Notes: a model not told the origin generated them from the letters alone. A stretch of 64,000 nt of DNA from Patescibacteria group bacterium (GCA_041645215.1 JBAZQK010000001.1:54091-118090), one strand, 5' to 3'; shown: positions 1,721-64,000, counted from the first letter of the stretch. Numbers and translations are program-made.

Positions 1721-2414
1721 CGAAAAAAGTACTATTATTCAACTACTGGAAGCGTTGTTTGGTTTACCCTTGGAATTGTCAATTTTGGTGGTAGATGACA
1801 ATTCACCCGACCAAACCGCTCAATTGGTTCAATCAGCGCAGAGTCAATATAAAAATTTGCATTTAGTCAAGCGGCCGGCCAAACTCGGCTTGGGTAGCGC
1901 TTATCGCTTTGGTTTTGATTACGCGTTGCACCGCGGAGCGGAGGCAGTGGGGCAGATGGACGCGGATTGGTCCCATCAACCAGTTGATGTTTTAAAGTTG
2001 CTGGCGGCAATTAACAATGGCGGTGATGCGGCCATTGGGTCGCGGCGGGTAACCGGCGGCGAAATTAGCGGTTGGAATTGGCGCCGGCATTTTATGAGCC
2101 GAGGCGCGACTTGGTTGGCGCGCTTGGTATTACGTTTAAAAACCCAGGACATAACTGCCGGGTTTAGGTTTTATACTAAAGCGGCCTTAAGCCGAATACC
2201 GTGGTCGCAGGTTAAAAGCGAGGGTTATGCTTGGCAAGAGGAGACTATTTTTTTGTGTGAGCAGGCGGGTTTAAAGATAATTGAGGTGCCGGTTAAGTTT
2301 GTTGATCGCCAGCAAGGCCAATCCAAATTAGGCTTAAGAGACGTTGTGGAATTTTTTAAGGCGGTGTTTAGATTAAAATTAGTTAAAATTTTAGCTACTA
2401 AAAAACACTCCTAA
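1689..2414 (+). CDS. Family-2 glycosyltransferase, polyprenol-phosphate mannose/glucose synthase-like (Dpm1/GtrB type).
   Basis: MKIWLIIPTYNE...VVDDNSPDQT...DADWSHQP matches the GT2 nucleotide-binding DxD region of dolichol-phosphate mannosyltransferase-like enzymes. The internal ATG at 1689 fits better than the ORF start at 1668. Confidence 0.7.
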   Translation: MKIWLIIPTYNEKSTIIQLLEALFGLPLELSILVVDDNSPDQTAQLVQSAQSQYKNLHLVKRPAKLGLGSAYRFGFDYALHRGAEAVGQMDADWSHQPVDVLKLLAAINNGGDAAIGSRRVTGGEISGWNWRRHFMSRGATWLARLVLRLKTQDITAGFRFYTKAALSRIPWSQVKSEGYAWQEETIFLCEQAGLKIIEVPVKFVDRQQGQSKLGLRDVVEFFKAVFRLKLVKILATKKHS

Positions 2415-2431
2415 TAAGGAGTGTTTTTTAG
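2399..2431. terminator. Bidirectional rho-independent terminator between convergent genes.
   Basis: aaaaacactcctaataaggagtgtttttt forms a perfect 9-bp stem flanked by A-runs and T-runs on both sides. Confidence 0.5.
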
Positions 2432-2443
2432 TAGTAATGTGAA

Positions 2444-3040
2444 TTAGGGTTGGCACTGTCCTGGCGGGTAGGCCGCCCCGCGACATACTAAGAGGACAGG
2501 GGTGGTAGCAGGAGGGACAGCAGGGATGACACCACAATCAGCATTTTTGTAGCAAGTTTCGCCTTGTTTGCGTGATCCGGCTGCAAAAGTTTCAGTCGGC
2601 GTTCCACCACCCAGCGATGTAACGGTTTTTAAGTTTTTTACAATAAACGACGAAATAATAAACGACGCCATTATGATTATGAGTCCGATTATAGCGCCGC
2701 TTAAAACTTTTTTGGCTTTGGTAATTTTTTCCTCATTGCCGGCCGCGGTCATCCAGCTAAAGCCGCCGTAGATTATTAAAATGACCGCCAACACGCCCAC
2801 CAATCCTAGAACCACATTAATGATAGTGGCCGCCACTAATACCGGGTCAGCTTCGCCAATCGGCAAACCTGCGGCTTTGGCGGTGTTTTTCAGGTTGTAG
2901 TCCTGCACTAGGGCAGGAGGATTTGGGTTTTCAGCGTAAACCGTTTTAACGTTAACAACTAGCGTAAACGAGAAAGCCATTAATACGCTAGCCATTAAAA
3001 TTATTAAAGCGATTTGCCCTTGTTTATAAGGACGTTTCAT
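2444..3040 (-). CDS. Secreted T4SS-type pilin (CPR TrbC/VirB2-like family) with a Cys-rich C-terminal tail.
   Basis: Signal/TM segment, then ...GGFSWMTAAGNEEKITKAKKVL... flanked by two hydrophobic helices. The C-terminus reads CYKNADCG...CRGAAYPPGQCQP. The same W-MTAAGNEEK core appears in the next three genes. Confidence 0.6.
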   Translation of the reverse strand: MKRPYKQGQIALIILMASVLMAFSFTLVVNVKTVYAENPNPPALVQDYNLKNTAKAAGLPIGEADPVLVAATIINVVLGLVGVLAVILIIYGGFSWMTAAGNEEKITKAKKVLSGAIIGLIIIMASFIISSFIVKNLKTVTSLGGGTPTETFAAGSRKQGETCYKNADCGVIPAVPPATTPVLLVCRGAAYPPGQCQP

Positions 3041-3067
3041 AGATTATTTTCCTCCGCTGTCAATACC

Positions 3068-3097
3068 CCGCGGCTGGCCGCGGGAAAAAAATAGGGA
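3068..3097 (-). terminator. Rho-independent terminator after the pilin gene at 3210-3572, read on the minus strand.
   Basis: ccccgcggctggccgcggg followed by aaaaaaa on the plus strand, which gives a GC hairpin plus U-run on the minus strand. Confidence 0.4.
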
Positions 3098-3209
3098 GAA
3101 TCCTCCGAAGTCCTCCTTGGGAGGACGAAGGAGGAGTATGGAGCTTCGGACGAATGAACACTTTTTGAAGAGCCGCCGATACCTCGTCGGCTTGCCGCGA
3201 GGTAGTTCA

Positions 3210-3572
3210 TTAAGGAGTGGCGCCAGTGGCATTAGATAAGTTGCTGATGACAAATGAGGCAATGGCGAAAGCGGCAAAGATGATTACTAAGCCAACTACG
3301 CCCGCTCCCAGTAATTTTTTGGCCTCGCCCACCTTTTCCTCGTTGCCGGCCGCGGTCATCCATTTAAAACCACCCATCAGAATTAATACTACCGCGACAA
3401 CACCTAAGAAACCTAAGATGACATTGATAATTTGCGCTATAGTGGTAATTAAATCCTTGTTGCCGAGGTTGACGTTACCCTCCAATGGGGTTAGCCCGTA
3501 GTTTTGCGCCAATACGACTGCTGGCAGGCCGTACATTACAGCGCCCGTAACAGATGCAATTATTTTTTTCAT
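3210..3572 (-). CDS. T4SS-type pilin, the minimal 120-aa form.
   Basis: Signal peptide, then ...GGFKWMTAAGNEEKVGEAKKLL... followed by a hydrophobic helix. Confidence 0.6.
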   Translation of the reverse strand: MKKIIASVTGAVMYGLPAVVLAQNYGLTPLEGNVNLGNKDLITTIAQIINVILGFLGVVAVVLILMGGFKWMTAAGNEEKVGEAKKLLGAGVVGLVIIFAAFAIASFVISNLSNATGATP

Positions 3573-3685
3573 GATGTCACCCCCTTTCTTAATTTTACGC
3601 CCGATAGAAAAAATCGAGTATAGTTATTTGAGTAATTAAATTATAAAATATTATTTCGTTTTAGTCAATTGCTTTTGTTTTATAG

Positions 3686-5206
3686 TTACTGTGATGCGCA
3701 TTCTTTACCAGCTACCCATTGCATTCCCGAGTCTGGCACATAACATTTGCCATTGATTAATTCATATGAACCGCCAATATAATTGCACCCCCAGATAGGG
3801 TTAGGATCGCCGACCGGCGGAAAAAGACCAGCCTTGCACATACCTTCTAAGACACCCCCCTTACAGCCCTTAAGTCCGCCTAAGTTTATTGTGCATTGTC
3901 CAATTTGTTGGCAGTTGTAGCCTAGATATTGCTTGCCGGCTTCTTCGGTCGGTGAGCCCCACCAACCAGGAATATTTTTACCGGCTTTTTTACAAGTACT
4001 GCCAGTTTCTAAACGGCAAATGAAATCTTTTTTAGCCCAATCCCAGCGGATACAGGCCCACTTAGGTTCAAGTTCATTGCCGCTCACCTGCGGATAGTCT
4101 TCCCCGGCCCGGAAATCAACTGGTAAATAACACGAGCCGTTGCTCAATTCGCCAAATACGCAAGCGCCATTGGTTATCATCCGGCTGATTGGTTTAAATA
4201 ATTCGGGGACGCAATTCTCAACCCGGGTGTTGTATTTTGTAGTTTTGTATTTTAATATGCGGTTTTTATAAGCTCCGCCGGGAGCGCCGTCAATAGTTTG
4301 AATACAAGCCCCGACGTCTTCGCAATTGTAAGCCCCTTTTATTATTAGTTGGCCTTGGGGTTTAATAATGTTGTTATTGGCATCTAATTTAGGCTTGCCA
4401 CATCCAGCCATCGGTTCCATTTCGCATTTTGCGCCATAATCTTTTCCTAGCGGCAGCCTAAAACAAGGTATTTCAGTCGTGGCTTCCGGGGTTGGTTGGA
4501 ATTGCTCAACCACTGGTTGCTGGCCGGAGAATATCTGGTAAACCGGCCGGTAAACAAAATTAATTAAGCTGTAAGCGCCCAAAACCACAGCCAAGCCAAC
4601 AACGCCGTACCCCAAGTTTTTTCTGGCTTTGGTGATTTTTTCCTCATTACCGGCCGCGGTCATCCATAGCAGTCCGCTATAAATAAATACCAGTAAGGTT
4701 AATCCGCCCAATCCGCTTAAAGCAAAGCCCAAAATCCGCTCACCATAAAATTCAAGCGGACCCTTGGTTATATTAAGCGGGTCAAATAATATGCTTTTAC
4801 CAATAAAGTTAGCAGGTGTGCCGCCAGTCAAGGTCTTGATGGTGGTGGAAAGAATAGCGTAACTACCCACTGTTACAACCAAGCCAATTAGGGCGTAGGC
4901 AATCATTTTTTTGCCTTTTTGAAAAGTTTCACTATTGCCGGCGGCGGTTAAAATCCGATAACCGCCTAATACCACAATCACCAAGGTTATCGTACCGGTT
5001 ACCACCATCAAACCGGCGGCCAGCCGGACAAACAGATCGTTGGGGTCAATAGTTCCTAGGGGATTAAACAATGGCGGGATGGATTCTTGGGCGCCGGTTA
5101 TTAGTGGCCAGCCCAGCGCCAAGATGGGAAGCAAAAAAAGCGCCCCCCCCAAAAAAAGATTGATTATTTTTTTATAACTCATAAATAATGTTATGGTTGG
5201 CAACAC
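3686..5206 (-). CDS. Fusion protein with two tandem pilin modules and a roughly 250-aa Cys-rich extracellular domain.
   Basis: Module 1 is ...ILTAAGNSETFQKGKKMIAYALIG... and module 2 is ...LWMTAAGNEEKITKARKNLGYGVVG.... The C-terminal half carries about 20 Cys residues in CxxC/CxC patterns. Confidence 0.55.
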   Translation of the reverse strand: MLPTITLFMSYKKIINLFLGGALFLLPILALGWPLITGAQESIPPLFNPLGTIDPNDLFVRLAAGLMVVTGTITLVIVVLGGYRILTAAGNSETFQKGKKMIAYALIGLVVTVGSYAILSTTIKTLTGGTPANFIGKSILFDPLNITKGPLEFYGERILGFALSGLGGLTLLVFIYSGLLWMTAAGNEEKITKARKNLGYGVVGLAVVLGAYSLINFVYRPVYQIFSGQQPVVEQFQPTPEATTEIPCFRLPLGKDYGAKCEMEPMAGCGKPKLDANNNIIKPQGQLIIKGAYNCEDVGACIQTIDGAPGGAYKNRILKYKTTKYNTRVENCVPELFKPISRMITNGACVFGELSNGSCYLPVDFRAGEDYPQVSGNELEPKWACIRWDWAKKDFICRLETGSTCKKAGKNIPGWWGSPTEEAGKQYLGYNCQQIGQCTINLGGLKGCKGGVLEGMCKAGLFPPVGDPNPIWGCNYIGGSYELINGKCYVPDSGMQWVAGKECASQ

Positions 5207-5871
5207 GTTTCGCTCTTATTTGTATCGCAGCTTCTTGGGCCCATATTTTTAGCCGCTGGGCAGTTTGTTTGACAGGTATTGGGAGAAGTACATGCTACAT
5301 TACAACACTTCCAGTCTGGTTTACAGTTTCTTTGCCCTAAATCCTCATCACCAGTAAAACAGCTTTGGTCAAAACATTTGTTTGGCAAAGTGCAAATATT
5401 TGACACATCACAGCCCAAAGATTCTTTCCACCATTCTTGAGTTAATATTTGTTTGGGAGTTTTTCCAACCGGCGTTGTTAGAATTCCATACAGAGCCACA
5501 ACCAAAAGATAGCCAGCTAAGATTATTAAAACACCGAGCAAAGTAGAGGTTATTAATTTACGGCCGGCGGTAAATTTTTCCTGATTGCCGGCGGCAAATA
5601 CCATGCTTTGCCCGCCCCAAATAAGCATAACCAGCGCCAGGCCGGCGAATATTGACAAAATAACTTTTTGCAGCACTACGAATAAACTAACAAAATCGCA
5701 CATTGTGCAATTGCCGGTGGCTTGGCAAGCCTCTGGCAAGTTGCCCACAATACCTTTTTTAAGTTCAAAAGTCTGGGCAAGGGCGGGCGATGGCGTTGCC
5801 ATTGAAGCCAATACGGTCAGACCGCCAAGCAAAAAAAGGGTAGCCAGTAGGACTTTAGTTGTCCGTTTCAT
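5191..5871 (-). CDS. T4SS-type pilin with a knottin-like, extremely Cys-rich C-terminal module.
   Basis: ...GGQSMVFAAGNQEKFTAGRKLI... pilin core. The C-terminus reads CDVSNICTLPNKCFDQSCF...CKPDWKCCNVACTSPNTCQTNCP...CDTNKSETCCQP. It overlaps the upstream gene by 16 nt. Confidence 0.55.
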   Translation of the reverse strand: MKRTTKVLLATLFLLGGLTVLASMATPSPALAQTFELKKGIVGNLPEACQATGNCTMCDFVSLFVVLQKVILSIFAGLALVMLIWGGQSMVFAAGNQEKFTAGRKLITSTLLGVLIILAGYLLVVALYGILTTPVGKTPKQILTQEWWKESLGCDVSNICTLPNKCFDQSCFTGDEDLGQRNCKPDWKCCNVACTSPNTCQTNCPAAKNMGPRSCDTNKSETCCQP

Positions 5872-5998
5872 ACCATTAATTTAGCACAAAAGGTTAGAAT
5901 AGTGAATTAGGAATTAAGAATTAAGAAGCGAGAAGATAGGAAGGAACGTTTTAGAGCTATAGTTTTTATTCTTAATTCGCAATTCATGATTCTTAATT

Positions 5999-7384
5999 CT
6001 ATTTTCTTAAGGTCTGTCCTACTTGATTGACGGCAAAATCAATGGCTTGTTTTAAATCTACGCCGCCGGCCGCTTGTCGGATCATATTTTGAAAAATCTC
6101 TCGCATAATTTTGGATTTAGAGCCGTGGTACCAGCTTTTAGCCGTTAGCAGTTGTTTAGCTGGTTTTCCCAAGTCAATATCTTCCAGTTGTTTATTAATA
6201 AGACTGCGCAGAGCGGTTGGTTTTTGAGCAGAGGTAAGATATTTGTCCGCCACTTCAGATTTGGTGGTTACGTATTGAATAAAGTTCCAGGCTTCATTGG
6301 GGTGCTGGCTTTGTTTAGGAACGGTTTCCAGGTAGTAACTGGCATAATAGACTGGTTTGTCAGCGGCATCAATTTGGGGAAAATTAGCAACCCCGATGTT
6401 AATTTTGGGCGACAATGTTCGCAGTGTAGCTAAATCGCGCCAGTAGGCAAAAACAAAACCAATTTTACCGGCCGCGAACAATTGCCAGGCGTTGCTCTGG
6501 TCGCGCGACCAGGTATAAGTTTCTTTGCTGGGGTTGGCAAAATCAGTATAAAACCTTAGAGCATCGGCGCCCGGGAAAAAATCTTGGCCGCCAACTTTGA
6601 CCGCTTGGTTAAAAGTAGCGGCGGTGCCGGTGTTGTTAGTCATCGGCGTGCCGTTCTGCAGCATTAGAGCCGATAGAATATCATCCGAGTACGGCACATT
6701 GTCGGCTTCGCCCACGGCGGCGCCATGCTGGACAAAAAAACCACTTTTATCAAGTACGGTAATTTTTTGCGTAGCGTCTTTGAATTCAGTCCAAGTAGCC
6801 GGCGCGGTTGATATTTGGGCATTATTCAAAAGGTCGCGATTGTAAAATAACAACAACGTGTCAAGACTGATTGGCAGGCCGTAGGTTTTATTGTCAAAAA
6901 TTGCGTCACGGGCAACAACATCAACAAAAGTGTCAGTTAAAGCCTGGGGTTTAATGGTTGAGCTGGTTTTAAAATACCATTGAGCTTCTTTTTTAAATAA
7001 ACCTTTAATTTCAACAGACGGTAATTTTAAGCTGGCCGGTAATGGCGATAATTTGTCTAACCAGCCGCCCAGACTGGAGTTAGGCAAGGACACAATGTCG
7101 GGGCCGGTACCGGCCGCTAAAGCTTCCAGCAGTTTATTCTCTAATTCTTCCGCCCGCACAGTTTGAATATTGACACTTATGTTGGGTTGGCTGGTTTTGT
7201 AGTCCTTAATTATTTGATCAAAATTAGATTTTTCACCCTCAATTCGCCACCAATTTAAAGTTAGAGGTTGGGCCGCCTCTTTGGCTTTAGGGTCGCCACC
7301 CTTGCAACCCAGACCCAGCAGACTGCCGACTAATAAACCAGTCATTAAAATAATTAAACCACGGTGCGAGCGGAGGATACTCAT
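5999..7384 (-). CDS. ABC transporter extracellular solute-binding lipoprotein, family-1 sugar-binding type.
   Basis: Lipobox LLGLGC in the signal peptide. The 461-aa length and a Trp/Tyr-rich periplasmic binding-protein pattern fit the family. Confidence 0.55.
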   Translation of the reverse strand: MSILRSHRGLIILMTGLLVGSLLGLGCKGGDPKAKEAAQPLTLNWWRIEGEKSNFDQIIKDYKTSQPNISVNIQTVRAEELENKLLEALAAGTGPDIVSLPNSSLGGWLDKLSPLPASLKLPSVEIKGLFKKEAQWYFKTSSTIKPQALTDTFVDVVARDAIFDNKTYGLPISLDTLLLFYNRDLLNNAQISTAPATWTEFKDATQKITVLDKSGFFVQHGAAVGEADNVPYSDDILSALMLQNGTPMTNNTGTAATFNQAVKVGGQDFFPGADALRFYTDFANPSKETYTWSRDQSNAWQLFAAGKIGFVFAYWRDLATLRTLSPKINIGVANFPQIDAADKPVYYASYYLETVPKQSQHPNEAWNFIQYVTTKSEVADKYLTSAQKPTALRSLINKQLEDIDLGKPAKQLLTAKSWYHGSKSKIMREIFQNMIRQAAGGVDLKQAIDFAVNQVGQTLRK

Positions 7385-8247
7385 ATGATTTGTTTTAAAT
7401 AGTCGCGAAATTCATCTTTTAATTCAGGGTCTTTGAGCGCCAAATCAACATTGGCTTCCAGCCAGCGCAATTTTGAGCCCATGTCGTAATAAATGCCGTC
7501 CACTAAACAAGCATAGATCGGTTTTTTGCTTAGCAGTTGATTAATCGCGTCCGGCAGCCACAACTCTCCGTTCTTGCCCAAAGGGGTGTTTTCTAATTCA
7601 GTGAATATTTCGGGTGTAAGAATATAACCGGAAATGCTGGCTAAGCGCGAGGGCGCGGCCACGGGACCGGGTTTTTCTACAACCGATTTTACTTTATAGA
7701 CACGGTCACTAATTGGTTCAGCCTCAATTATGCCATAATTTTTTGTGCCTTCGTCGTCAACTTTGTAGGCAGTTATAACCGGTTGTTCATATTGTTCATA
7801 GACCTCAATTAATTGTTGGAGGTGCGGCCGGGGGCCAAGCATTAAATCATCGCCAAAAATAACCGCAAAGGGTTCGTTATTAATTAAGTGTTTAGCGTTT
7901 AATATGGGCGTGCCGTTGCCGTAGGGGCCTTTTTGGCGAATATAAACAAAATTAGCCAGTTCAGCGATTTTTTTTACTTGTTCCAGGGCCTCAGTTTTGC
8001 CTTGACGCGCCAGCCAAGCTTCCAACTCCGGCATGTAATCAAAATGGTCCTCCACCGCCCGCTTGTTAAAACTAGTAACTACAATAATGTCTTCTATCCC
8101 TGAAGCTACCGCCTCTTCCACAATGTATTGCAAAATCGGCTTGTCAACTATTGGCAGCATTTCTTTGGGCAGGGCTTTGGTGACTGGTAAAAAGCGTGTG
8201 CCAAAACCGGCTACCGGAATGATTAGTTTGCGAATTTTTTGGGGCAT
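7381..8247 (-). CDS. galU: UTP--glucose-1-phosphate uridylyltransferase.
   Basis: The N-terminus KLIIPVAGFGTRFLPVTKALPKEMLPIVDKPILQYIVEEA is the canonical GalU nucleotide-binding motif. Its stop overlaps the start of the upstream substrate-binding gene. Confidence 0.9.
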   Translation of the reverse strand: MPQKIRKLIIPVAGFGTRFLPVTKALPKEMLPIVDKPILQYIVEEAVASGIEDIIVVTSFNKRAVEDHFDYMPELEAWLARQGKTEALEQVKKIAELANFVYIRQKGPYGNGTPILNAKHLINNEPFAVIFGDDLMLGPRPHLQQLIEVYEQYEQPVITAYKVDDEGTKNYGIIEAEPISDRVYKVKSVVEKPGPVAAPSRLASISGYILTPEIFTELENTPLGKNGELWLPDAINQLLSKKPIYACLVDGIYYDMGSKLRWLEANVDLALKDPELKDEFRDYLKQII

Positions 8248-15274: not shown

Positions 15275-15324
15275 GTAACCAATCCTCCTTGGGAGGACTG
15301 CTCTACCACTTGAGCTACGGACCC
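15275..15324 (-). pseudogene. Partial duplicate of the tRNA-Lys 5' half (acceptor 5' strand plus D-arm) fused to a non-tRNA hairpin.
   Basis: 27 nt, ctgctctaccacttgagctacggaccc, are identical to 15208-15234. They are followed by a tcctccttgggagga hairpin instead of an anticodon arm, with no T-arm or 3' acceptor. Confidence 0.5.
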
Positions 15325-15752: not shown

Positions 15753-16790
15753 TTAGCGTAAGCTATCAATTGAGATAACGTGAGCTTCCGCCGTGGCTTG
15801 GGTGATTATATCCTGTTTTAATAAATCCCGAATACTGTGGTCCATGGTTATCATGCCTTGGGCGGCGCTGGTTTGAATGACAGATTTTATTTGTGGCGTT
15901 TTATTTTCGCGAATTAAATTGGCGATCGCTGAGTTATTCGTTAGGATTTCTCGCGCGGCCACTCGTCCGCCGCCGACCTTAGGCAGCAGACGTTGAGAAA
16001 TAATGGCGCGTAAACTTGAAGATAATTGCGATCGAATTTGGTTTTGCTGGTGGGGCGGGAATACATCAACGATGCGGTCAAGGGTTTCAGCCGCATTGTT
16101 GGTGTGTAAAGTGGCAAATACTAAATGTCCGGTTTCGGCCAGCGTGATGGTAGCGGCGATAGTTTCAATATCGCGCATTTCTCCAACCATAATCACGTTC
16201 GGATCCTGCCGCAAAATATGCTTTAGTCCTTCATTAAAAGACAACATATCAGTACCAAGTTGGCGCTGTTTGATAATACTTTTAACCGGGGTAAAAACAA
16301 ATTCAATCGGGTCTTCTAAAGTAATTATATTTACCGCCCGTTCATTATTGATTTGTTCAATAATAGCAGCCAAGGTAGTTGATTTGCCGCAGCCGGTGGG
16401 ACCTGTTACCAACACTAAACCGTAATCAAGACGTGTCAGGTTGTAAACCACCGCTGGCATGGTTAGATCTTCCAGGGCCGGAATTTTAGTAGGAATAACA
16501 CGTGCCACCAGGCCAGGATTGTCTTTTTCAAAATGCAGGTTAATACGGAAGCGGGTGCCGTCTTTAATTTGGAATGAAGTATCAAGCTCGCGTTCAGTTT
16601 CAAATTTCTGTTTTAGTTTTGGCGCCAACATAGCATTGAGCAGTTCAGACAGGTTTTTGCCGGTTAGAATAGGATAATCAAGCTCTTTTAATATACCATC
16701 CACTCTAACAATCGGTGGTTTGTTAACCACCATATGCAAGTCAGAGGCTTTTAAACTAGCAGCCTCGCTAAGCAGAGATTCAATAGTCAT
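15753..16790 (-). CDS. pilT: Type IV pilus retraction ATPase PilT (twitching motility protein).
   Basis: Walker A is LVLVTGPTGCGKSTT. NIITLEDPIEF and MVGEMRD match the PilT/PilU signature motifs. 345 aa. Confidence 0.9.
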   Translation of the reverse strand: MTIESLLSEAASLKASDLHMVVNKPPIVRVDGILKELDYPILTGKNLSELLNAMLAPKLKQKFETERELDTSFQIKDGTRFRINLHFEKDNPGLVARVIPTKIPALEDLTMPAVVYNLTRLDYGLVLVTGPTGCGKSTTLAAIIEQINNERAVNIITLEDPIEFVFTPVKSIIKQRQLGTDMLSFNEGLKHILRQDPNVIMVGEMRDIETIAATITLAETGHLVFATLHTNNAAETLDRIVDVFPPHQQNQIRSQLSSSLRAIISQRLLPKVGGGRVAAREILTNNSAIANLIRENKTPQIKSVIQTSAAQGMITMDHSIRDLLKQDIITQATAEAHVISIDSLR

Positions 16791-24990: not shown

Positions 24991-25890
24991 TTAAGTGTAG
25001 CGTTTAGTGGTAATAATATTAGCGTGGCCCAGAGTTTGTTGGATATTTTTTATGGTGTTGCCTTGTTTTATAAGTTGATTGGCAAAAACGTGACGCAAGG
25101 TTGAGGGTGTAATTTTTTTATTCAGTCCAGCCGCCAAACGATAGTGTTTAATTATTCTTTGTAAGCTGCGAGGGGTTAAGGCAAAATTATGACGTTGCTT
25201 GCGCACGGGCGAGGTTTGAGCGCGATCATGACTAATGAATAAGGCTGGCTCGGTATCATGCCGCGCCTTTAGATAATTGTTTATAATATTTTTAATATTA
25301 GGCGGCAATGGTATTTGGCGTACCCGACCTTTAGTACGGCTGATCGTAATAAAATTTTCCTCCGCCTTAAGCGCGTTACGTTGCAGGTGGGACAATTCGG
25401 AAACTTTTAAACCCGCCGCCACCAATAAATTTAAAATCGCTAAGTCGCGTTTTTTTATTAATTCACTATCTTGGCTTTGTTCACAAAATTTAATCATTAA
25501 ATTAACCTCGGCCGCGCTGACCGCCGGTAAAATGATTGAACGCAGTCGCTTTAACGACAAGTTGGTATAGTCAGGCACCGGAATGCCGGTTTGTGACAGG
25601 TATTTTAAAAAAGCCCGCAGTCCGATTAAATAATAATTTTGCGTGGCCGGCGACAAGTTGTGCCCGCTATTGGAGGTGGATTGCTTAAGCCAGGCCTTAT
25701 AGTTTTCCAAGTGCTGGCCGGTGAGGTCGCTGGCTTTATCAAGTTTAACCCGGGCCTGGTCCGACCATTGCCGGAATTTATTCAGATAAATGCGGTAATT
25801 GGATGCCGACGATTGGCTCAACTGGCGCTTAAGTTTAAGCGTTTGCAGAAAATTGTTTATGGTTTCGTTTAAACCAGCCGGGTTCGCCAT
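24991..25890 (-). CDS. Tyrosine-type site-specific recombinase (phage-integrase/XerCD family).
   Basis: C-terminal ...TLRHVFANQLIKQGNTIKNIQQTLGHANIITTKRYT carries the R...H..R..Y catalytic tetrad. The N-terminal SAM-like domain reads YRIYLNKFRQWS. Confidence 0.8.
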   Translation of the reverse strand: MANPAGLNETINNFLQTLKLKRQLSQSSASNYRIYLNKFRQWSDQARVKLDKASDLTGQHLENYKAWLKQSTSNSGHNLSPATQNYYLIGLRAFLKYLSQTGIPVPDYTNLSLKRLRSIILPAVSAAEVNLMIKFCEQSQDSELIKKRDLAILNLLVAAGLKVSELSHLQRNALKAEENFITISRTKGRVRQIPLPPNIKNIINNYLKARHDTEPALFISHDRAQTSPVRKQRHNFALTPRSLQRIIKHYRLAAGLNKKITPSTLRHVFANQLIKQGNTIKNIQQTLGHANIITTKRYT

Positions 25891-28449: not shown

Positions 28450-28656
28450 AGCTCCGCGGGTTTATCCAGCCTTCGTCCTCCCAAGGAGGACGGAGGCGAA
28501 TAAGTTTTCATAATTATTAACGGTAATAAATAGTAATCTAGCGAATTGCGGGTTATTTGAAGAGAGGTGGTTTAAGGTTTTTGGCTTAAATTAACTCCTT
28601 TCAAATAACTATCCGCGGCGCCGGTTGACTGTTCAGTACCAAAGAAAGGATAGTTT

Positions 28657-36232: not shown

Positions 36233-39200
36233 ATGAAGTCGTATAACCATACAGAAGTTGAACTAAAGTGGCAGCGTCGCTGGCAGGATGAAAAAATCTT
36301 TGCGACTGGTGAGGACACTAAAAAAAAACGCAGCTACATTTTGGATATGTTTCCTTATCCGTCGGCCCAAGGTTTGCATGTCGGCCACCCCGAAGGTTAT
36401 ATCGCGACTGATATTTATGCTCGCTACTTAAGGCTTAAAGGAGTAAACGTATTGCATCCGATGGGCTGGGACGCGTTTGGTTTACCCACGGAAAACTTTG
36501 CCATTAAAACCGGACGGCATCCTAATGAAGTTGCGCGGCAAAACATTGATAATTTTCGCCGCCAGATTAAATCTTTAGGATTTTCTTATGATTGGGATCG
36601 GGAGATTAATACCGCCGACCCGGCTTACTATAAATGGACGCAGTGGTTGTTCTTAAAATTGTATGAGCAAGGGCTGGCTTACCAAAAGCAGGCGCCGGTT
36701 AATTGGTGTCCGTCTTGCCAAACTGTGTTGGCCAACGAACAGGTGGCCGGCGGCGAGTGCGAGCGCTGTCATAGCCAGGTGGAGCAGCGTCAGATGAAAC
36801 AATGGTTTTTTAAAATTACGGATTATACCGAGCGTTTGTTAAAAGATTTAACCGGCTTAGATTGGCCGGCGTCAATTGTGGAAATGCAGCGCAATTGGAT
36901 TGGCAAAAGTGAAGGCGCGGAAGTAAATTTTTCAATTATTGATAGCGACGTTAAAAGATTTATTTTGCTTCACGGACGAAGCGCTTCATCTGCCAGCCAT
37001 TTTATTCCGCCGCTAAAAATTGAATTAGAAAAGATGGGTTATGAGGTAGAAACTCCGGATTTACCTAACACCGATTTACCTGATGATATTGAACAAACGG
37101 AATTTGTTAAAGCTAATTGTAAATTGGACCGACATACGGTTATAGTAGGGCACTCTATGGGCGGCGTGGTAGCCTTGCGTTTGCTGGAACAAGGCATAAA
37201 AGTTAATAAGGTTATTTTAATTAGTACACCGTTTACCGGGAAATTTTTGGATAGAAAAGACAGACCGTCTGTAACTAAAGCTTGCCAAAGGGGTTTTGAT
37301 TTTGAAACGATTATCAAAAATGCCAGTAGTTTTATGGTGTTGGGAGACAGTCAGGATCATGCTGTGTCACCAATTGAGGCAGAAATGTTCGCGGAAAAAT
37401 TAAAAGTTAAGGCTAAGATAGTTAAATCAGAGTCGTCACATTTTTGTTCCCAGAATGAGCCTGAGGTGTTGGCCTTTTGTACTAACGCTATTAGAATTTT
37501 TACTACTAGATTGGATACTATTTTTGGCGCGACTTATTTAGTTTTGGCGCCGGAGCACGAGGCTATTAATAAATTACAACCGCAGATTAAGAACTGGCCG
37601 GAGGTTGTGGCTTATATTGAAGCGGCTAAAAAGAAAACCGAGCTAGAAAGGAAAATTGAAACCAAAGACAAGACTGGAGTCGAATTGAAGGGTGTCTTAG
37701 TCGTTAATCCAGCTAACAATGAGTCCATACCTGTGTATGTGGCTGACTATGTATTGATGGGGTATGGTACCGGCGCCATTATGGCCGTGCCGGCGCATGA
37801 TGAGCGTGATTGGGAATTTGCCAAAAAATTTGATTTGTCGACTAAGCAAGTAATAGCCCTGGAAACAGGGTTAAAAAGAAAAAACGAGGAAAGGCGTGAT
37901 GGCGGTTGTGGAATAATTTTTGATTCAAAGTCGCAAAAGTATGCGGTACTTGAAGAAGAGGGCTCTGGTTTTTTGGGTTTTTGCGCGGGTGGATTAGATA
38001 CCAATAAAAATGAGCAGACGGAGGTAATTAGAGAGATTAAGGAAGAAAGCGGCTTATATGATTTTTGTCATATAGAAAAAATAAGTACAGCCTTTTCCCA
38101 TTTTTATAATAGTTTAAAAAATGTAAATCGTTTTGCTCATGCAGTTTGCTATTTATTTATTCTAAAATCAACAAATGTCAAGCCAACCAAGCTTGAAGTC
38201 CATGAAAAGTATAGTTTAGTTTGGAAAGACCCGGCAGAAATAGAGCAAAATTGGACTAAACAGAATCGGCAAGCTGATACTGAGTATTGGGTATATTTTT
38301 TGCACCAAGCAGTAGTCCGTGCGGTAGAACTTGGTTTTGATAAAACTAATACAAATTATAAGTTTAGGGCCACAACTGATTATGGACTACTAATTAATTC
38401 CGAGGAGTTTGACGGTTTGAGTTCTAAAGAGGCCATTTCCAAAATTGCGGAAAAAATTAAGGCCAAGTTAACTACTGAGTATCGCCTGCGCGATTGGCTG
38501 ATTTCGCGGCAACGTTATTGGGGTGCACCAATTCCAATTATCTACTGCCCGCATTGTATCGATAAAAAAGAATTTCCGGAACCCAAATTTATTGTTAATT
38601 GTGCCGATCATGACGGCTTTGAAAATATTATTAGCGGTAAAAAGCATGTGGTCACCCGAGCTCTTAGCTCAGAAGACGACGCCGCAAACTATGCGCAGAC
38701 TGTGCCTGGCGATATTTTGGAAATGATCGATAATAAGACAAAACAGCGAATCTATGTAAAAGTAGTAGGCGCTCAGACATTCAAATCGTTAGACGATCTT
38801 TTTAAAGAACGCAAAATCGCCGAAGCGACATTTAATAGAAAATTCTCGGCCAAAACTGAATTAAGTAATGAATACGAAAAAAATAGAAAAGGCTACACAA
38901 AGCAGATTGATACGTATGGACTGGTTGCTTGGCAAATTGAACTTATCACTAAAGCTGTGCCAGTGCCGGAGCCAGATTTGCCGGTTACTCTGTCCGATGA
39001 CGTGGATTTTCGCCCGCATGGTGAATCACCCTTAGCGCGGTCAGAGTCTTTTCATAAGGTTAAGTGTCTTAAGTGTGGCGCCTCGGCCCGCCGCGAGAGT
39101 GACACTATGGATACGTTTGTGGATTCAGCTTGGTACTTTCTGCGTTATGCTGACCCGCATAATGTTAAAGAGGCTTTTGCCAAAGAGAAAATTAAAACCT

Positions 39201-55495: not shown

Positions 55496-58471
55496 GTGCT
55501 AACCGATATTAAATCAAAACTTAATCAATTGCTGTGGGCCGTGGTGGGCCAAAAACGGCGGCTTTATGTTGTGCCGCTGATAGCGGCCGGAATATCAGCT
55601 TTGTTACTAGTTGTGCCACTGCCGGCCTATGCCAGTTTATGGTCGTTGTTAGCGGAGTTAGTCTTATGGATTGCCAAGTTGATCGGCGGGTTGGTAATAA
55701 CTTTGATTGATATTTTAATACAGATTGTTCAGTATAATGATTTTATCAACGCGCCGGCGGTAAGTAAGGGGTGGGTAATAGTGCGCGATGTGGTGAATAT
55801 GTTTGTGATTGTGCTGATGCTGGTAATCGCCTTTGCCACCACTTTTCGCATTGAGGAGTATCAATATAAAAAACTATTAAGCAGACTGCTGATAATGTCG
55901 GTGCTGGTCAATTTTTCCAAAATGCTGACCGGCTTTTTTATTGATTTTGCCCAAGTGATAATGCTCACCTTTGTCAATGGTTTTAAAGAGGCGGCGGCCG
56001 GTAATTTTGTCAACGGTTTTAAAATTCAAGCTATGTATGATTTCGCGCAAAATACGGATGCCGCCGGAAAAGCTGACTCTGGTGATTTTTTGGTGGCCGC
56101 GCTGTTGGCGCTGATAAGTTTGACAATAACTTTGGTTGTGGTGGGGGTTTATGTGGTGGTGTTTTTGCTAAGAATTGTGTTTTTATGGATGCTAATCATT
56201 CTTTCGCCAATGGCTTTTGTGCTGTCGGCGTTTCCCGGGCAAGCTAAAAAATATTCTACCGAGTGGTGGGAATATTTTGGCAAATATTTAACTGCCGGCC
56301 CGATTCTGGCGTTCTTTTTATGGCTTAGCTTGGCGGTAATGCAGTTTGATAGCAGCGCCTTTGGCACAGCTTTTAAGGCAGAAACCAAAGAAACCGCCGG
56401 GGTGGGCACAGTGGCGAGCAGTGGCGCCGTGGGCGCTTCCATTTCTGCATTTGGTCAGTCTGATGTTTTGCTGTCGTTTATTATTAACATAATTTTATTG
56501 CTGGGCGGATTATGGATGACGCAGAAACTAGGCGTGGCCGGCGGCAAGCTGGCCGGGGCGGCTTTAGCCAAAATCCAATCCGCCGGCGCTTCAATCGCCA
56601 AAGCGCCATTCAAGCCAGTAGGATTTCTCGCCAGTCGTGTCTGGGGCACGGCTAAATACAATTGGAATTTGGCTACTTCAAAGTTGATGGAGGGGCATGA
56701 AGGCAAAAAAGTGGGAATTTTAAGGAAAGCGGCCTTTGCGGTTCTTAACCCAGTGGCTGCCGCCCGCGGTTGGGAAGCCCGTACTGAAGAGATAGAAAAA
56801 CAAGCACAGGAGATAGCCGGCGCTTATGGACGTGAAGTTACAGAGCAGTTCCGTACCGGCGGTAAGCTCAAGATGCCGTATGCCACTTTTACCGAAAGAC
56901 GGCACGAAGACGAGTTTCAGAAGGAATATCAGAATATGACTAAAGAAGAATTCATGGAAACTGCCCTTAATACCGAAAATTTGGGTGGTCTAGAGGGTAA
57001 ACGCCGTAGGCGCGCCATAGTGAAGTCAGCTGCTTCACAAGGGTATCTAGATGATATTATGCGTTTGGGCCACTTTGCCAATAAATACGGCAAGGCTGAT
57101 GGGACTGTATATGATGACGAGACTTTGGATAACTTTCTTTATGGCTACATGGGGCATGACCAGGAAAGTATGCGCGTGATGACGACTGACCTAGAACACC
57201 TTGGTAAGGGTACCCATCATTGGGAGTATCTCGGGCATGCTTATTTTGACCCCAAGTCCGGCGCTTACCATCGTGGCTACAACGTGAAAAGTAAGGATGA
57301 AAAAGGTAATGACGTCCTAGAGAATACTTGGCAGAAAGAATATTCACGGCAGGAGATTCAGAAGGTTGGTGGCCGTATTCGCGTTCAAGACGCCCCGCAT
57401 AATGAGTTGAGTATTAAAGGTGATATGTGGAAAGAAGGTGAGGAAGATGAAGATGGTAATGTGCATCATGCGGGCGAATTTAAGATTAATAAGGCAGGGA
57501 CCGAAGCTGGTCAAATAGCCGGGTTTAGGTGGGGACACGGCGAAGGAGGTCCTACCGGTTTCCAGCAGTACATAATGAGTGCAACTTCAGATGCTTCTAC
57601 TCTGCGCGATATACACTTTGCTCAAGGTAGAATGAAGGAGGCTATGCTCTCTAAAGAGGTGGATGGAAAGACTGGGGAGGTCATAGTTGATTCAATGGAG
57701 CAACTAGAGAAAATCCAGCATTTGTTTGATGAGATTCCAAATAAAATTTTAAGATTTTACGCCCAACTAGCAGATATTAATGATCTCAAAGAAATAGAGG
57801 CCCTGAGCGGGTTTGTAGTTAGGGTAAAGGACAAAGAAACAGGCCAAGAAACCTCCCATATTATAGGGGAACCAGAACATAAACCTCCTATAGCTGCTGA
57901 AACTGCTGCTAAACTTGCACGGGATAAAAGTATTCCAGGTAAGGATGAAAAGGAATTGGCTCCAAGAGAAAGCGCAGTGGCTGATGTGATCTCTCAAATG
58001 ATGTTGGGGCAGACCAATTCGCTTGATGCAATGGCAGCTGCTCTGGAGGGGAGTAAAAAGTTCGAGGATGGCACTGACTTTAATAAATTAGCAGAACAGG
58101 TCGTGGGGGCATGGTCGAGCAAACGACAAGAGTTTTTCGAGCCGAATGATTTAATGGGCCAGTTTGCTGGCAGGGGTGTTATGGGTAAAGATATGGTTGA
58201 TTTTGTTAAAGAAATTAAATCGGCAATTGTGCGGGGTTTCCTTGATGCTGCTATGATAAAAAAGCATGGGATTAGTAGTGATGATACTGTTAAGTTAATT
58301 AGGAACGCAGTGAGGTCTAAGATTTTCCCCGACCCCGAGAAACCAAATGAGGCCAGGGCTGGCAGGCAGAAGATTGAGTTCAGCGAACAGGAATTGGGAC
58401 AGTTACAGCCGCAGATTGATCTGACTATTCGTTCCTTCCTTCCTTTAGCTCCCTCCCAATCTTCTCCTTAG
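55496..58471 (+). CDS. VirB6/TrbL-like polytopic membrane protein with a roughly 600-aa hydrophilic C-terminal extension.
   Basis: The N-terminal 380 aa have six or seven TM helices with a VirB6/TcpH-like layout. The C-terminal part is charged and soluble. The position between the surface protein and the VirB3/VirB4 genes fits T4SS organisation. Confidence 0.45.
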   Translation: MLTDIKSKLNQLLWAVVGQKRRLYVVPLIAAGISALLLVVPLPAYASLWSLLAELVLWIAKLIGGLVITLIDILIQIVQYNDFINAPAVSKGWVIVRDVVNMFVIVLMLVIAFATTFRIEEYQYKKLLSRLLIMSVLVNFSKMLTGFFIDFAQVIMLTFVNGFKEAAAGNFVNGFKIQAMYDFAQNTDAAGKADSGDFLVAALLALISLTITLVVVGVYVVVFLLRIVFLWMLIILSPMAFVLSAFPGQAKKYSTEWWEYFGKYLTAGPILAFFLWLSLAVMQFDSSAFGTAFKAETKETAGVGTVASSGAVGASISAFGQSDVLLSFIINIILLLGGLWMTQKLGVAGGKLAGAALAKIQSAGASIAKAPFKPVGFLASRVWGTAKYNWNLATSKLMEGHEGKKVGILRKAAFAVLNPVAAARGWEARTEEIEKQAQEIAGAYGREVTEQFRTGGKLKMPYATFTERRHEDEFQKEYQNMTKEEFMETALNTENLGGLEGKRRRRAIVKSAASQGYLDDIMRLGHFANKYGKADGTVYDDETLDNFLYGYMGHDQESMRVMTTDLEHLGKGTHHWEYLGHAYFDPKSGAYHRGYNVKSKDEKGNDVLENTWQKEYSRQEIQKVGGRIRVQDAPHNELSIKGDMWKEGEEDEDGNVHHAGEFKINKAGTEAGQIAGFRWGHGEGGPTGFQQYIMSATSDASTLRDIHFAQGRMKEAMLSKEVDGKTGEVIVDSMEQLEKIQHLFDEIPNKILRFYAQLADINDLKEIEALSGFVVRVKDKETGQETSHIIGEPEHKPPIAAETAAKLARDKSIPGKDEKELAPRESAVADVISQMMLGQTNSLDAMAAALEGSKKFEDGTDFNKLAEQVVGAWSSKRQEFFEPNDLMGQFAGRGVMGKDMVDFVKEIKSAIVRGFLDAAMIKKHGISSDDTVKLIRNAVRSKIFPDPEKPNEARAGRQKIEFSEQELGQLQPQIDLTIRSFLPLAPSQSSP

Positions 58472-61017: not shown

Positions 61018-61512
61018 GTGGTTTTGAGATTTGACTTTTTAGTTTTAACTTTTCCTACTGTGCAACAATTCGTCGTGCCCCAATTTATAGACGTTGAGGA
61101 TAAAATTTTTGGCCCCATAACCACGCGGCAATTCATTATTTTGTTAGTGGGGGCGTTTATTCTTTTTATTGAGTATAAAATATTAGATTTTACCCTGTTT
61201 GTTCTACTGGGGGTAATAACATTGGTAGTTTTTGGAATTTTGGCCTTTTTTAAGATAAATGGTATGCCGGTTCACTATTTTTTGTTAAACTTTACTCAAA
61301 GCTTCAAACGCCCCAAGGTGCGCATTTGGCAAAAGGATATTAATGAGCAAGAGCTTAAACTAAACCTGCATCGCCCCGTGATGGTTACTAAGGCCGTAAC
61401 GGCGCTAAAGCCGCCTTTGGAAAAATCTAAACTCACCCAACTTGGTATGTTGGTTGATACGGGAGGAATGTATAGAGGAGAGGAAGAAGAGATTAGTAAG
61501 AGGAGTAATTAA
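61018..61512 (+). CDS. PrgI/TcpE-like small membrane protein (VirB3 analogue of Gram-positive-type T4SS).
   Basis: KIFGPITTRQFIILLVGAFILFI followed by a second TM helix, the PrgI-family pattern. The true start may be an internal GTG. Confidence 0.5.
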   Translation: MVLRFDFLVLTFPTVQQFVVPQFIDVEDKIFGPITTRQFIILLVGAFILFIEYKILDFTLFVLLGVITLVVFGILAFFKINGMPVHYFLLNFTQSFKRPKVRIWQKDINEQELKLNLHRPVMVTKAVTALKPPLEKSKLTQLGMLVDTGGMYRGEEEEISKRSN

Positions 61513-61954: not shown

Positions 61955-62647
61955 TTGACTATGCCCAAACGCGAATTAGCCGGTAAAAAAAAGTCGCTCC
62001 CGTCAACCACCAGGTACTTGGATATTGGCGAGATTAGGGATGATGCCGTAGTTTTAAGAGATGGCACCTTGCGGGCCGTGTTGATGTGTTCGTCAATTAA
62101 TTTTTCGCTGAAAAGCGATGACGAGCAGAAGGCAATCGTGCAGGGCTATGTAAGTTTTCTTAATTCTTTGGAATTTCCTTTACAAATTGTGGCCCAATCG
62201 CGCAAATTAAATATTGACGGGTATTTGGCCAATTTAAACAACATCGCCAAACAGCAAACTAATGAATTGTTACGGGTGCAGATTAATGATTACACGGCCT
62301 ATATTAAAGAACTAATATCACTGGGCGATATTATGACTAAGCGTTTTTATGTGGTGGTGCCGTATAATCCGGGTAGTGACAAACGCCGCAGCTTTTGGGA
62401 GAGATTTGTTTCCATTTTTTCCGCCGCTAAAGCCGTTAGATTGTCGCGTGATAAATTTAATAAATATTTGGAATCTTTGGAAAGACGGGCTGGTCAGGTA
62501 GAAAGCGGCCTGGCCTCAATGGGTTTAACCGCGGTCCGACTTGATACCCAAAGTTTAATTGAGCTTTATTATACAAGTTACAATCCGGAACTTAGAGAAA
62601 CGGAAAAGTTGGCCGGAATGGATGAGATACAAGTGGAAGCAGATTAA
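61955..62647 (+). CDS. N-terminal roughly 230 aa of a VirB4/TcpF/PrgJ-like T4SS ATPase, separated from the rest of the gene.
   Basis: RDGTLRAVLMCSSINFSLKSDDEQKAIVQGYVSFLNSLEFPLQIVAQSRKLNIDGYLANL ... TKRFYVVVPYNPG aligns with the N-terminal region of Gram-positive VirB4-like ATPases (the TcpF/PrgJ pattern). The ORF stops at 62647 and homology continues in the ORF starting at 63147. Confidence 0.65.
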   Translation: MTMPKRELAGKKKSLPSTTRYLDIGEIRDDAVVLRDGTLRAVLMCSSINFSLKSDDEQKAIVQGYVSFLNSLEFPLQIVAQSRKLNIDGYLANLNNIAKQQTNELLRVQINDYTAYIKELISLGDIMTKRFYVVVPYNPGSDKRRSFWERFVSIFSAAKAVRLSRDKFNKYLESLERRAGQVESGLASMGLTAVRLDTQSLIELYYTSYNPELRETEKLAGMDEIQVEAD

Positions 62648-63146: not shown

Positions 63147-64000
63147 ATTTTCTATCATGGCTATTTCTCCGGAAAAATTTGAAAGTGATTTACAAAAATC
63201 AGCCACTACCCGGGCGGCGCCCGCGGCAGCGGGAGAGGTGTCGGCTCGCCAGCTATTAGAGGCGGAGCGCATATTGCGCCAAGGTACGGTAAAAATAAGG
63301 GAATTAATCGCGCCGGCTTCATTCAAAGTTACGCCTGATCATGTTGAGTTAAACAATTTTTTTGTTAGAACTTTATTTGTTTTGACATATCCGCGTTATA
63401 TTTCTTTAGGCTGGTTTGCGCCTATCGTGAACTTGAATTTTGCGCTTGACATCGGAATGTACTTTTATTTGGTGCCCAGCGAAATTATTCTAAAACAATT
63501 GCGCAATAAAGTGGGCGCTCTGGAAGCGCAAATAATGGCCGACCACGAAAAAGGCGCGCCCCGCGACCCGGTGCGGGAGACCGCCCTGCAAGACATTGAA
63601 CAGTTGCGCGACAGCCTTACCCAGGGTTCGGAGAAATTTTTTCAGTTTGCTTTATATGTAACTTTATACGCCCCTAGCCTTAAAGAACTGGATAAGATTA
63701 CCGAGGAAGTGGAAAGTTTGTTCGGCTCTAAATTAATATATTCCCGTCGCGCTTTATGGCAGACGGAGCAGGGTTTTAATTCCACCTTGCCACTCGGTAA
63801 TGATGAATTGCAGATTTACTTTAATATGAATTCCTCGCCGATTGCTTCGTCTTTCCCGTTTACCTCGTCCGAACTTACCAGCGACAACGGAATTATGTAT
63901 GGCATTAACCGCCATAATAACTCGTTAATTTTATTTGATCGCTTTAGTTTGCAGAACGCCAACATGGTGGTATTTGCCACCTCGGGCGCTGGTAAAAGTT
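63147..64000 (+). CDS. VirB4/TcpF-like T4SS ATPase, central part up to the Walker A motif. It is open at the window end and absent from the ORF track because no stop is reached.
   Basis: The frame opens at ATG 63147 and runs to the window edge. LNNFFVRTLFVLTYPRYISLGWFAPIV and ...FPFTSSELTSDNGIMYGINRHNNSLILFDRFSLQNANMVVFATSGAGKS match the VirB4 signature preceding and including Walker A. Confidence 0.8.

Follow-up and report, generated by a model that had tools for sequence, protein, structure and literature searches.

What is built from four neighboring pilin genes when three of their products carry cysteine-rich domains that differ from one another? This question is raised by a 64,000-nucleotide stretch of the genome of an ultra-small Patescibacteria group bacterium (GCA_041645215.1, JBAZQK010000001.1:54091-118090), hereafter referred to as the window. 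A first description, made from the sequence alone (the original prediction), had read the four genes as a cassette system that displays variable Cys-rich modules on a pilus or pseudopilus. The tandem array itself was already known, because such arrays were described in Patescibacteria in 2025: Quinonero-Coronel et al. (PMC12102498) reported 441 arrays of 2-11 VirB2-like genes in 383 assemblies, with a mean identity of 25% and a maximum of 54%, and located arrays within 20 genes on either side of virB4 in 1135 of 1948 assemblies. Arrays are also treated in PMC12857230, and the array of Southlakia epibionticum is essential (Wang et al. 2023, PMC10633639). Our analysis suggests, with a probability that we put at about 60%, that the operon in the window supplies a filament or surface array of the VirB2/TrbC type, in which pilin B would be the bare major subunit and pilins A, C and D would be disulfide-decorated minor subunits for host contact. 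Decorated and fused subunits of this kind appear to be undescribed; the literature that we searched, with incomplete coverage, makes no mention of disulfide-rich ectodomains, tandem-fused pilins or linkage to the gene for a solute-binding protein (SBP).

Results

The four open reading frames (ORFs) follow one another on the minus strand at 2444-5871 (Table 1) and were named A to D by rising coordinate, the order of transcription being D-C-B-A. That they are four consecutive pilin paralogues was borne out by the ORF map, by matches to the Pfam family PF18895, by conservation and by predicted structures. A six-frame regular-expression search of the whole 64 kb for the motif AAGN-x-E-x gave five true matches, all of them in array genes and two of them in C. 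Neither this search nor a hidden Markov model (HMM) of the pilin core, built from the five cores and iterated once, revealed further pilin genes in the window. The five cores, of ~75 aa each, align without internal gaps at 28-54% identity, so that the locus corresponds to the published definition of an array, i.e., two or more VirB2-like genes in tandem with low mutual identity.

A Logan assembly of sequencing run SRR8449827 was found to be 100% identical over 5448 bp spanning D, C and B, and the array sequence is, therefore, not an assembly artefact. The Cys-rich tails are in frame in this independent assembly, and the same is true of the orthologues in four or more further genomes, which answers the concern, raised with the original prediction, that a corrected assembly might put them out of frame. 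Pilin D is present in NCBI with the annotation "pilin". The true start of pilin C is probably the ATG at 5182, giving 498 aa, rather than the GTG at 5206, because a database protein of 99% identity (P0001) starts there.

We compared the proteins with PF18895 (T4SS_pilin, the pilin family named after the type IV secretion system, T4SS; gathering threshold 26.6 bits) and with PF04956 (TrbC/VirB2; 27.9 bits). Pilins A, B and C scored 38.2, 37.4 and 44.4 bits against PF18895, all above the gathering threshold, and C did so with two stretches. Pilin B also matched PF04956 over its full length, under the gathering threshold (21.9 bits, E 2e-4); A, C and D did not match this family, and no protein of the window reached its gathering score. 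Among diverse short pilins of related loci, all 30 matched PF18895 and 12 of the 30 matched PF04956 at E<0.01 (best E 2.4e-10), and PF18895 was also matched by 142 of 150 Cys-decorated relatives. The NCBIfam family NF045849, the pilin-like protein of Mycoplasma integrative and conjugative elements (ICEs), matched B at 41.1 bits against a cut-off of 40 and A and C below threshold. Judged by these profile scores, the array proteins are members of PF18895 that are related to VirB2/TrbC at the superfamily level, and not strict members of PF04956. The pseudopilus of the original prediction, a term for the type II secretion and type IV pilus class, has to be given up in favor of the VirB2/TrbC class of type IV secretion systems.

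The architecture of PF18895, i.e., a signal peptide followed by two hydrophobic helices and a short charged loop, was evident from hydropathy, from hairpins predicted by AlphaFold2 (AF2) and from the ungapped alignment. AF2 predicted the helix-loop-helix of D with confidence (predicted local distance difference test, pLDDT, 80-90) and four helices for C. Signal-peptide cleavage sites, read by eye according to the -3/-1 rule, likely lie after residue 36 in A (VYA/E), 22 in B (VLA/Q), 39 in C (TGA/Q) and 32 in D (ALA/Q), which would leave a mature pilin B of ~98 aa.

The two tandem cores proposed for pilin C are supported by its two PF18895 stretches, two motif copies, orthologues and four predicted helices. 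The helices span residues 55-87/92-127 and 153-183/188-226 and form two complete pilin units; because an LF[ND]PL segment precedes each core, it was the whole mature unit that was duplicated. The multi-Cys domain, which had been put at roughly 250 aa, indeed contains 18 Cys over ~256 aa, all of them within residues 248-503. This domain (245-506) is predicted to be beta-rich, with a pLDDT of 75-88, and consists of two weakly similar modules of ~120 aa each in which the Cys are aligned (BLASTP E 0.003). Full-length homologues of C are 40-50% identical to it and retain both cores and all 18 Cys without exception; shorter homologues combine both cores with a single module of ~110 aa and 10-12 Cys, and one homologue has a longer tail with 26 Cys. 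When 1.84 billion representative proteins were searched exhaustively with a profile of the Cys domain, it was found in only 12 clusters, and in the full-length matches it starts just past the pilin cores, at about residue 220-235. As far as sequence comparison goes, the double pilin with its 18-Cys domain is, thus, a conserved and rare family. No relative of the domain was detected in the PDB by fold or by sequence. Profiles of the pilin and of the Cys domain, the Cys domain by itself and a 991-aa protein of the window described below were each compared with PDB sequences, and these searches returned nothing or spurious matches to designed repeats.

The Cys residues of the other three pilins differ in number and position. 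Pilin B, the 120-aa form, was correctly described as having no Cys module. The tail of pilin A had been read as CxxxCxC; its Cys lie at 163, 169, 186 and 196 with the spacing C-x5-C-x16-C-x9-C. For pilin D, 19 Cys in 75 aa had been claimed, and we counted 16, of which three (49, 55 and 58) stand just before helix 1 and 13 lie in the last 73 residues. AF2 predicted this tail, which the original prediction had called knottin-like, with a pLDDT of only 48-67, too low to tell whether it contains the knottin module of ~30 aa with three disulfides in the knotted order I-IV, II-V, III-VI.

The core HMM was used to scan the ORFs of 80 related loci together with the window. Since these loci were recruited via core motifs and not via tails, the tail statistics are not circular, the dozen closest loci excepted. 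The 81 loci contain 528 pilins (median 6 per locus, maximum 15), including 18 double-core proteins, some of which are tail-less. Cys-containing ectodomains are present in 186 of the 528 pilins, and 61 of the 80 loci have at least one such pilin. All 74 C-terminal tails longer than 60 aa contain at least four Cys. Cys makes up 7-10% of tails, compared with 0.79% of non-pilin ORFs and 0.03% of the cores. Of 59 long N-terminal ectodomains, 47 are Cys-rich. Cys counts are even in 140 of the 150 pilins that have four or more (binomial p ~2e-30), which argues that all Cys take part in intramolecular disulfides of independently folded extracellular modules. Odd counts (5-35) were noted in the listed tails of the D-type cluster, and D homologues retain three invariant N-terminal Cys; together, these would form a disulfide staple that joins the two termini, both of which face outward.

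The tails are highly diverse (98 tails form 66 BLAST clusters), and the ectodomains of the 150 decorated pilins almost never match Pfam. The exceptions are single PF18895 proteins with a Big_5 Ig-like domain, a PG_binding_1 domain and an SLT lytic-transglycosylase domain, which hints that pilin cores may also carry adhesin-like or cell-wall-active modules. We also considered N-glycosylation of the pilins, on account of the conserved NLSNATG C-terminus of B and of nearby genes for a family 2 glycosyltransferase (GT2) and polytopic membrane proteins, and dropped it; pilin C-termini have 55 N-x-S/T sequons where 57 would be expected, and, thus, no enrichment. No gene for a thiol-disulfide oxidoreductase or vitamin K epoxide reductase homologue (VKOR) was found among the window ORFs scanned, several small ORFs excepted.

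Small, Cys-dense, hypervariable and toxin-like tails that are joined to the hairpin by G/T/P-rich linkers could also be read as released products, i.e., knottin-like toxins, bacteriocins or signals, with the hairpin serving as a cleaved pro-region for export or anchoring. However, neither a conserved cleavage motif nor a protease gene was found, the D tail and the tails of decorated relatives gave no match to Pfam knottin or toxin families, and the large two-module domain of C does not resemble a peptide. Furthermore, the Cys parity of the D type implies a tail that is disulfide-linked to its own N-terminal segment and, hence, retained. Release of the tails is, thus, highly improbable, and modules that stay attached to their pilins are the preferred explanation.

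The loci closest to the array belong to Candidatus Kerfeldbacteria, Veblenbacteria, Uhrbacteria, Magasanikbacteria and Falkowbacteria, and the housekeeping genes of the window are typical of Kerfeldbacteria/ABY1-like genomes; Kerfeldbacteria have been placed in the class ABY1 (PMC12102498). Other genomes have the genes in the same syntenic order: NTP-transferase, SBP, D-type pilin, double pilin, short pilin, A-type pilin and a convergent GT2 gene. In one of these loci (L001), dnaN lies ~9 kb past the pilin array; the assembly (GCA_018817715) is absent from the supplement of PMC12102498. By this comparison, the organism is an ABY1/Kerfeldbacteria-like Patescibacterium in which the array forms part of a conserved chromosomal operon. 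When the window proteins were compared with four orthologues, cores and tails were found to differ in conservation: identities were 65-82% for the core and 19-39% for the tail of A, 61-71% and 36-40% for C, and 71-81% and 12-31% for D, whose tail varies in length from 63 to 281 aa. Pilin B, with its tail of only 8 aa, is 89-94% identical to its orthologues.

These comparisons also bear on the proposed cassette system, in which paralogues would swap modules through recombination or gene conversion and so vary the tip on display, as in antigenic variation. Several paralogues with a common core and differing tails, the diversity of tails between genomes, and the analogy with Bartonella and Anaplasma VirB2 paralogues that is drawn in PMC12102498 are in line with such exchange. 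However, every paralogue is matched in other genomes by a positional orthologue whose tail is of the same type and whose order and context are the same. The only DNA that the paralogues share is a 92-nt core region of 61-74% identity, too divergent for homologous exchange. Silent copies and invertible segments are lacking, and no recombinase gene adjoins the array, the integrase gene at 24991-25890 being the nearest. Cassette exchange is the least probable of the explanations that we considered; the data favor a fixed set of subunits with rapidly diverging modules.

Signals in the intergenic regions were consistent with separate expression of pilin B. The C-B spacer contains a near-consensus sigma-70 promoter, followed by a strong Shine-Dalgarno sequence ahead of the start of B, and its -35 box (TTGACT) is kept in all four orthologous C-B spacers. 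Because B is bare, highly conserved and has its own promoter, it is probably the major subunit, with A, C and D being specialised. An 18-bp hairpin between the convergent ends of the GT2 and pilin A genes is probably, from its sequence and position, a bidirectional terminator that closes the operon. The strongly structured B-A spacer is missing in orthologous arrays, where the gaps are 0-15 bp as measured on longest-ORF calls. Its central hairpin recurs in intergenic regions at 28470-28491 and 15283-15298 of the window and at 2660-2696 of a related locus (L004), a distribution like that of a small repetitive extragenic palindromic (REP)-type element. The inverted repeat in the SBP-D spacer (5895-6001) could be a regulatory site.

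In 48 of the 65 loci with enough upstream sequence, the gene that immediately precedes the array, in the same orientation, encodes an SBP, and the gap between the two has a median of 10 bp. Genes for an ABC permease or ATPase do not adjoin the SBP gene in the window or in syntenic loci, and this linkage of an orphan SBP to a pilin array spans many Patescibacteria lineages. The end of a GalU-like NTP_transferase gene, syntenic in relatives, overlaps the start of the SBP gene, and this may be the first gene of the operon. Frequent neighbors of the array in the 80 loci encode DUF2079 proteins, pyruvate phosphate dikinase (PPDK), NusA, membrane pyrophosphatase (H+-PPase), trigger factor and glycosyltransferases, and no VirB4 or other T4SS genes are among them. 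Arrays are repeatedly flanked by GT2 together with large polytopic proteins (DUF2079, or proteins of 520-550 aa with no Pfam match), as at 31-2414 in the window.

A T4SS locus was found at 55.5-64 kb of the window, ~50 kb from the pilin array on the same contig. Its genes for a PrgI/VirB3-like, a TrsD-like and a VirB4-like protein were recognized by profile matches (Table 1), those of the TrsD-like protein to NF041427 and NF045975 both being under the curated cut-offs; the VirB4-like ORF leaves the window at its Walker A motif (GAGKS). A 991-aa polytopic protein without family or PDB match is, by position and topology only, a candidate for an extended VirB6-like channel subunit. Because the window holds no other pilin gene, the array is the only visible supply of pilin for this machine.

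The position of the array suggests a different possibility, namely that the hairpins do not polymerise and only anchor a disulfide-rich surface coat, which would work with the orphan SBP, independently of the T4SS, e.g., in the capture or sensing of host-derived sugars or in the organisation of the envelope. The close and frequent SBP linkage points in this direction, as do the lack of linkage between array and virB4 here and in relatives, the flanking envelope and glycan genes (GT2, DUF2079, polytopic membrane proteins, flippase) and the large ectodomains, which are awkward in a packed pilus. On the other side, the cores belong to the VirB2/TrbC superfamily, a bare, conserved and separately promoted pilin B is what a polymerising major pilin is expected to look like, and the same window has a T4SS locus that includes no pilin gene. 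Furthermore, a homologous array in Saccharibacteria is located within a T4SS cluster and is essential (PMC10633639). We regard a non-polymerising coat as plausible but unlikely, giving it more weight than either tail release or cassette exchange, and prefer a T4SS-associated pilus or pilin array.

Table 1. Coordinates of the pilin array, its spacers and putative control elements, and linked or T4SS genes, counted from the first nucleotide of the window.
Feature	Coordinates	Strand	Description
Pilin A	2444..3040	-	198 aa; VirB2-like hairpin ~69-137; 61-aa tail with 4 Cys; PF18895 E 1.5e-9
Pilin B	3210..3572	-	120 aa; bare, 0 Cys, 8-aa tail; PF18895 E 2.6e-9
Pilin C (double pilin)	3686..5206	-	506 aa from GTG 5206; two pilin units and Cys domain 245-506
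Pilin D	5191..5871	-	226 aa; hairpin 57-92/97-132; N-terminal ectosegment with 3 Cys; 98-aa tail
Inverted repeat	2395..2434		perfect 18 bp, 4-nt loop; between ends of convergent GT2 gene and pilin A
B-A spacer	3041..3209	-	169 nt, GC-rich, strongly structured; minimum free energy -67.5 kcal/mol, z -4.0
Sigma-70 promoter, near-consensus	3640..3668	-	TTGACT-17-TATAAT, 11/12; C-B spacer
SBP-D spacer	5872..5998	-	AT-rich; imperfect inverted repeat, 33-nt arms, 79% complementary
SBP homologue	5999..7384	-	461 aa; SBP_bac_1 PF01547 E 5e-30; lipobox LLGLGC
NTP_transferase, GalU-like	7381..8247	-	288 aa; end overlaps SBP gene start; syntenic in relatives
Polytopic protein	55496..58471	+	991 aa; ~8 hydrophobic segments in first 345 aa; long hydrophilic C-terminal region
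PrgI/VirB3-like membrane protein	61018..61512	+	164 aa; PF12666 E 5.8e-11
TrsD-like protein	61955..62647	+	230 aa; resembles VirB4 N-terminal domain; NF041427 E 4.5e-6, NF045975 E 4.6e-9
VirB4-like ATPase	63211..64000	+	N-terminal 263 aa; NF045971 E 2.5e-38; PF03135 E 1e-5

Several other features of the window were recorded. Three paralogous genes for four-helix-bundle proteins of the 23S_rRNA_IVP family (PF05635; 60600-61001, 61533-61904 and 62693-63079) are interleaved singly among the T4SS genes (a 665-aa ORF and those for the PrgI-like, TrsD-like and VirB4-like proteins). A giant ORF of 3441 aa (44580-54905) without Pfam match, which may encode a large surface protein, is preceded by that of a 245-aa protein with a bacterial TSP3 repeat (43735-44472). 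The leucyl-tRNA synthetase (36233-40099, 1288 aa) has an Abhydrolase_6 domain (~244-334) inserted between segments of its catalytic core. Finally, a gene for a PilT-like T2SSE ATPase (15753-16790) adjoins a cluster of tRNA genes (13.0-15.6 kb), and the organism may, therefore, have components of type IV pili in addition to the VirB2-type system.

Discussion

We propose that each pilin would be exported by the Sec system and freed of its signal peptide, and would then insert as a helical hairpin, with the basic loop (AAGNEEK-x-K-AKK) in the cytoplasm, or on the lumen side in the pilus, and both termini facing outward. The positive-inside rule predicts this topology, as does the analogy to VirB2, TrbC and TraA. 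In F and T pili, according to what is reported of the structures from Costa and colleagues in 2016 and of later T-pilus work, the two termini are exposed on the outer surface, with the loop facing the lumen. The N-out/C-out arrangement agrees with the Cys statistics, i.e., with the near absence of Cys from the cores and the even counts of decorated pilins, and in this respect the display of disulfide-rich modules that the original prediction had put forward fits the data; a filament as their carrier would follow from the model proposed here. Pilin B would provide the bulk of the subunits, and A, C and D would be minor subunits whose outward termini bear independently folded, internally disulfide-bonded modules. 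Pilin C would be a covalent tandem of two complete pilin units with its two-module 18-Cys domain, and the modules on either terminus, as well as the linker between the two pilin units, would lie on the outer surface of the filament. The modules, which diverge much faster than the cores, would most likely bind the surface of host bacteria in adhesion or target recognition. Assembly would be carried out by the machine encoded 50 kb away on the same contig (VirB6-like, PrgI/VirB3, TrsD and VirB4).

A number of observations weigh against this interpretation. Pilin D falls below the gathering score of PF18895 (16.8 bits, E 0.007), so that the T4SS_pilin search suggested with the original prediction succeeded for A, B and C and fell short for D, which matches the core HMM built in this analysis and several homologues of which have a precomputed PF18895 match. 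The profile of the pilin family did not retrieve solved T4SS pilins by sequence from the PDB, and structural matches to the helical hairpin were generic. Furthermore, virB4 starts at 63211. With a distance of ~57 kb and more than 40 intervening genes, the array does not count as near virB4, and virB4 is also absent within 10 kb on either side of the array in two related loci (L001 and L002). The conserved partner of the array is the SBP gene and not virB4. The modules match no known fold or family, and their binding role is putative. Finally, the tight packing of a VirB2-type helix leaves little room for a subunit with a 286-aa domain, except where such a subunit is sparse or terminal. It is with these points in mind that we place the probability of a VirB2/TrbC-type filament or surface array no higher than stated above.

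A more far-reaching version of the model is that the structure is a modular heteropolymer, made of a bare major pilin, hypervariable disulfide ectodomains at either terminus and fused double pilins, that works with the orphan sugar-binding lipoprotein as an organelle of host recognition and nutrient scavenging and sets the host range. We offer this version tentatively, and it is on balance doubtful.

The present array shares with those published from Patescibacteria the phylum, membership of PF18895, tandem divergent paralogues and a monoderm-type T4SS (VirB4, TrsD, PrgI/VirB3) in the genome. It differs in its distance of 50 kb from virB4, instead of a place within the T4SS cluster, and in that three of its four subunits have disulfide-rich ectodomains, one is a tandem double pilin and an orphan SBP gene stands upstream. 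Like classical VirB2, TrbC and TraA pilins (PF04956), the array proteins have a signal peptide and a hairpin of two hydrophobic helices connected by a short basic loop, and they are small when mature. In contrast to these, they come from a monoderm host and show no sign of cyclisation or acetylation, and classical pilins are not known to have large appended domains or tandem fusions. The ICE pilin-like Mbov_0395 family of Mycoplasma (NF045849) shares the context of a wall-less or monoderm T4SS and a VirB4 family match (NF045975); however, it is encoded on mobile ICEs for conjugation, whereas the present operon is chromosomal, syntenic across genera and without a relaxase gene nearby.

The closest parallel in design comes from type IV pili, which are unrelated to VirB2-type pili. 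Raynaud and colleagues are said to have described, in 2021, PilB and PilC of Streptococcus sanguinis as modular type IV pilins with grafted adhesin modules. These have the same plan of a conserved polymerisation core with an exposed C-terminal module, in a minor subunit beside a bare major pilin, but their modules are of the vWA and lectin types, whereas those of the array are disulfide-rich and unclassified. In the T4SSs of Bartonella and Anaplasma, tandem divergent copies of VirB2 have been proposed to broaden the interaction with host surfaces (cited in PMC12102498). Those paralogues vary within the pilin itself, are not known to have appended Cys-rich domains or fusions, and belong to diderm pathogens of eukaryotes.

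Patescibacteria, which live attached to other microbes, account for much of bacterial diversity. In the single species that has been tested genetically, the T4SS and the pilin array are essential. If the fast-evolving disulfide-rich modules are contact surfaces, they would be concrete candidates for determinants of host range. The conserved SBP-pilin operon would offer a testable tie between a filament and the uptake of host-derived molecules, and VirB2-type subunits that are fused in tandem and bear large domains would widen the repertoire of conjugation pili, which have hitherto been built from minimal subunits of ~70 aa.

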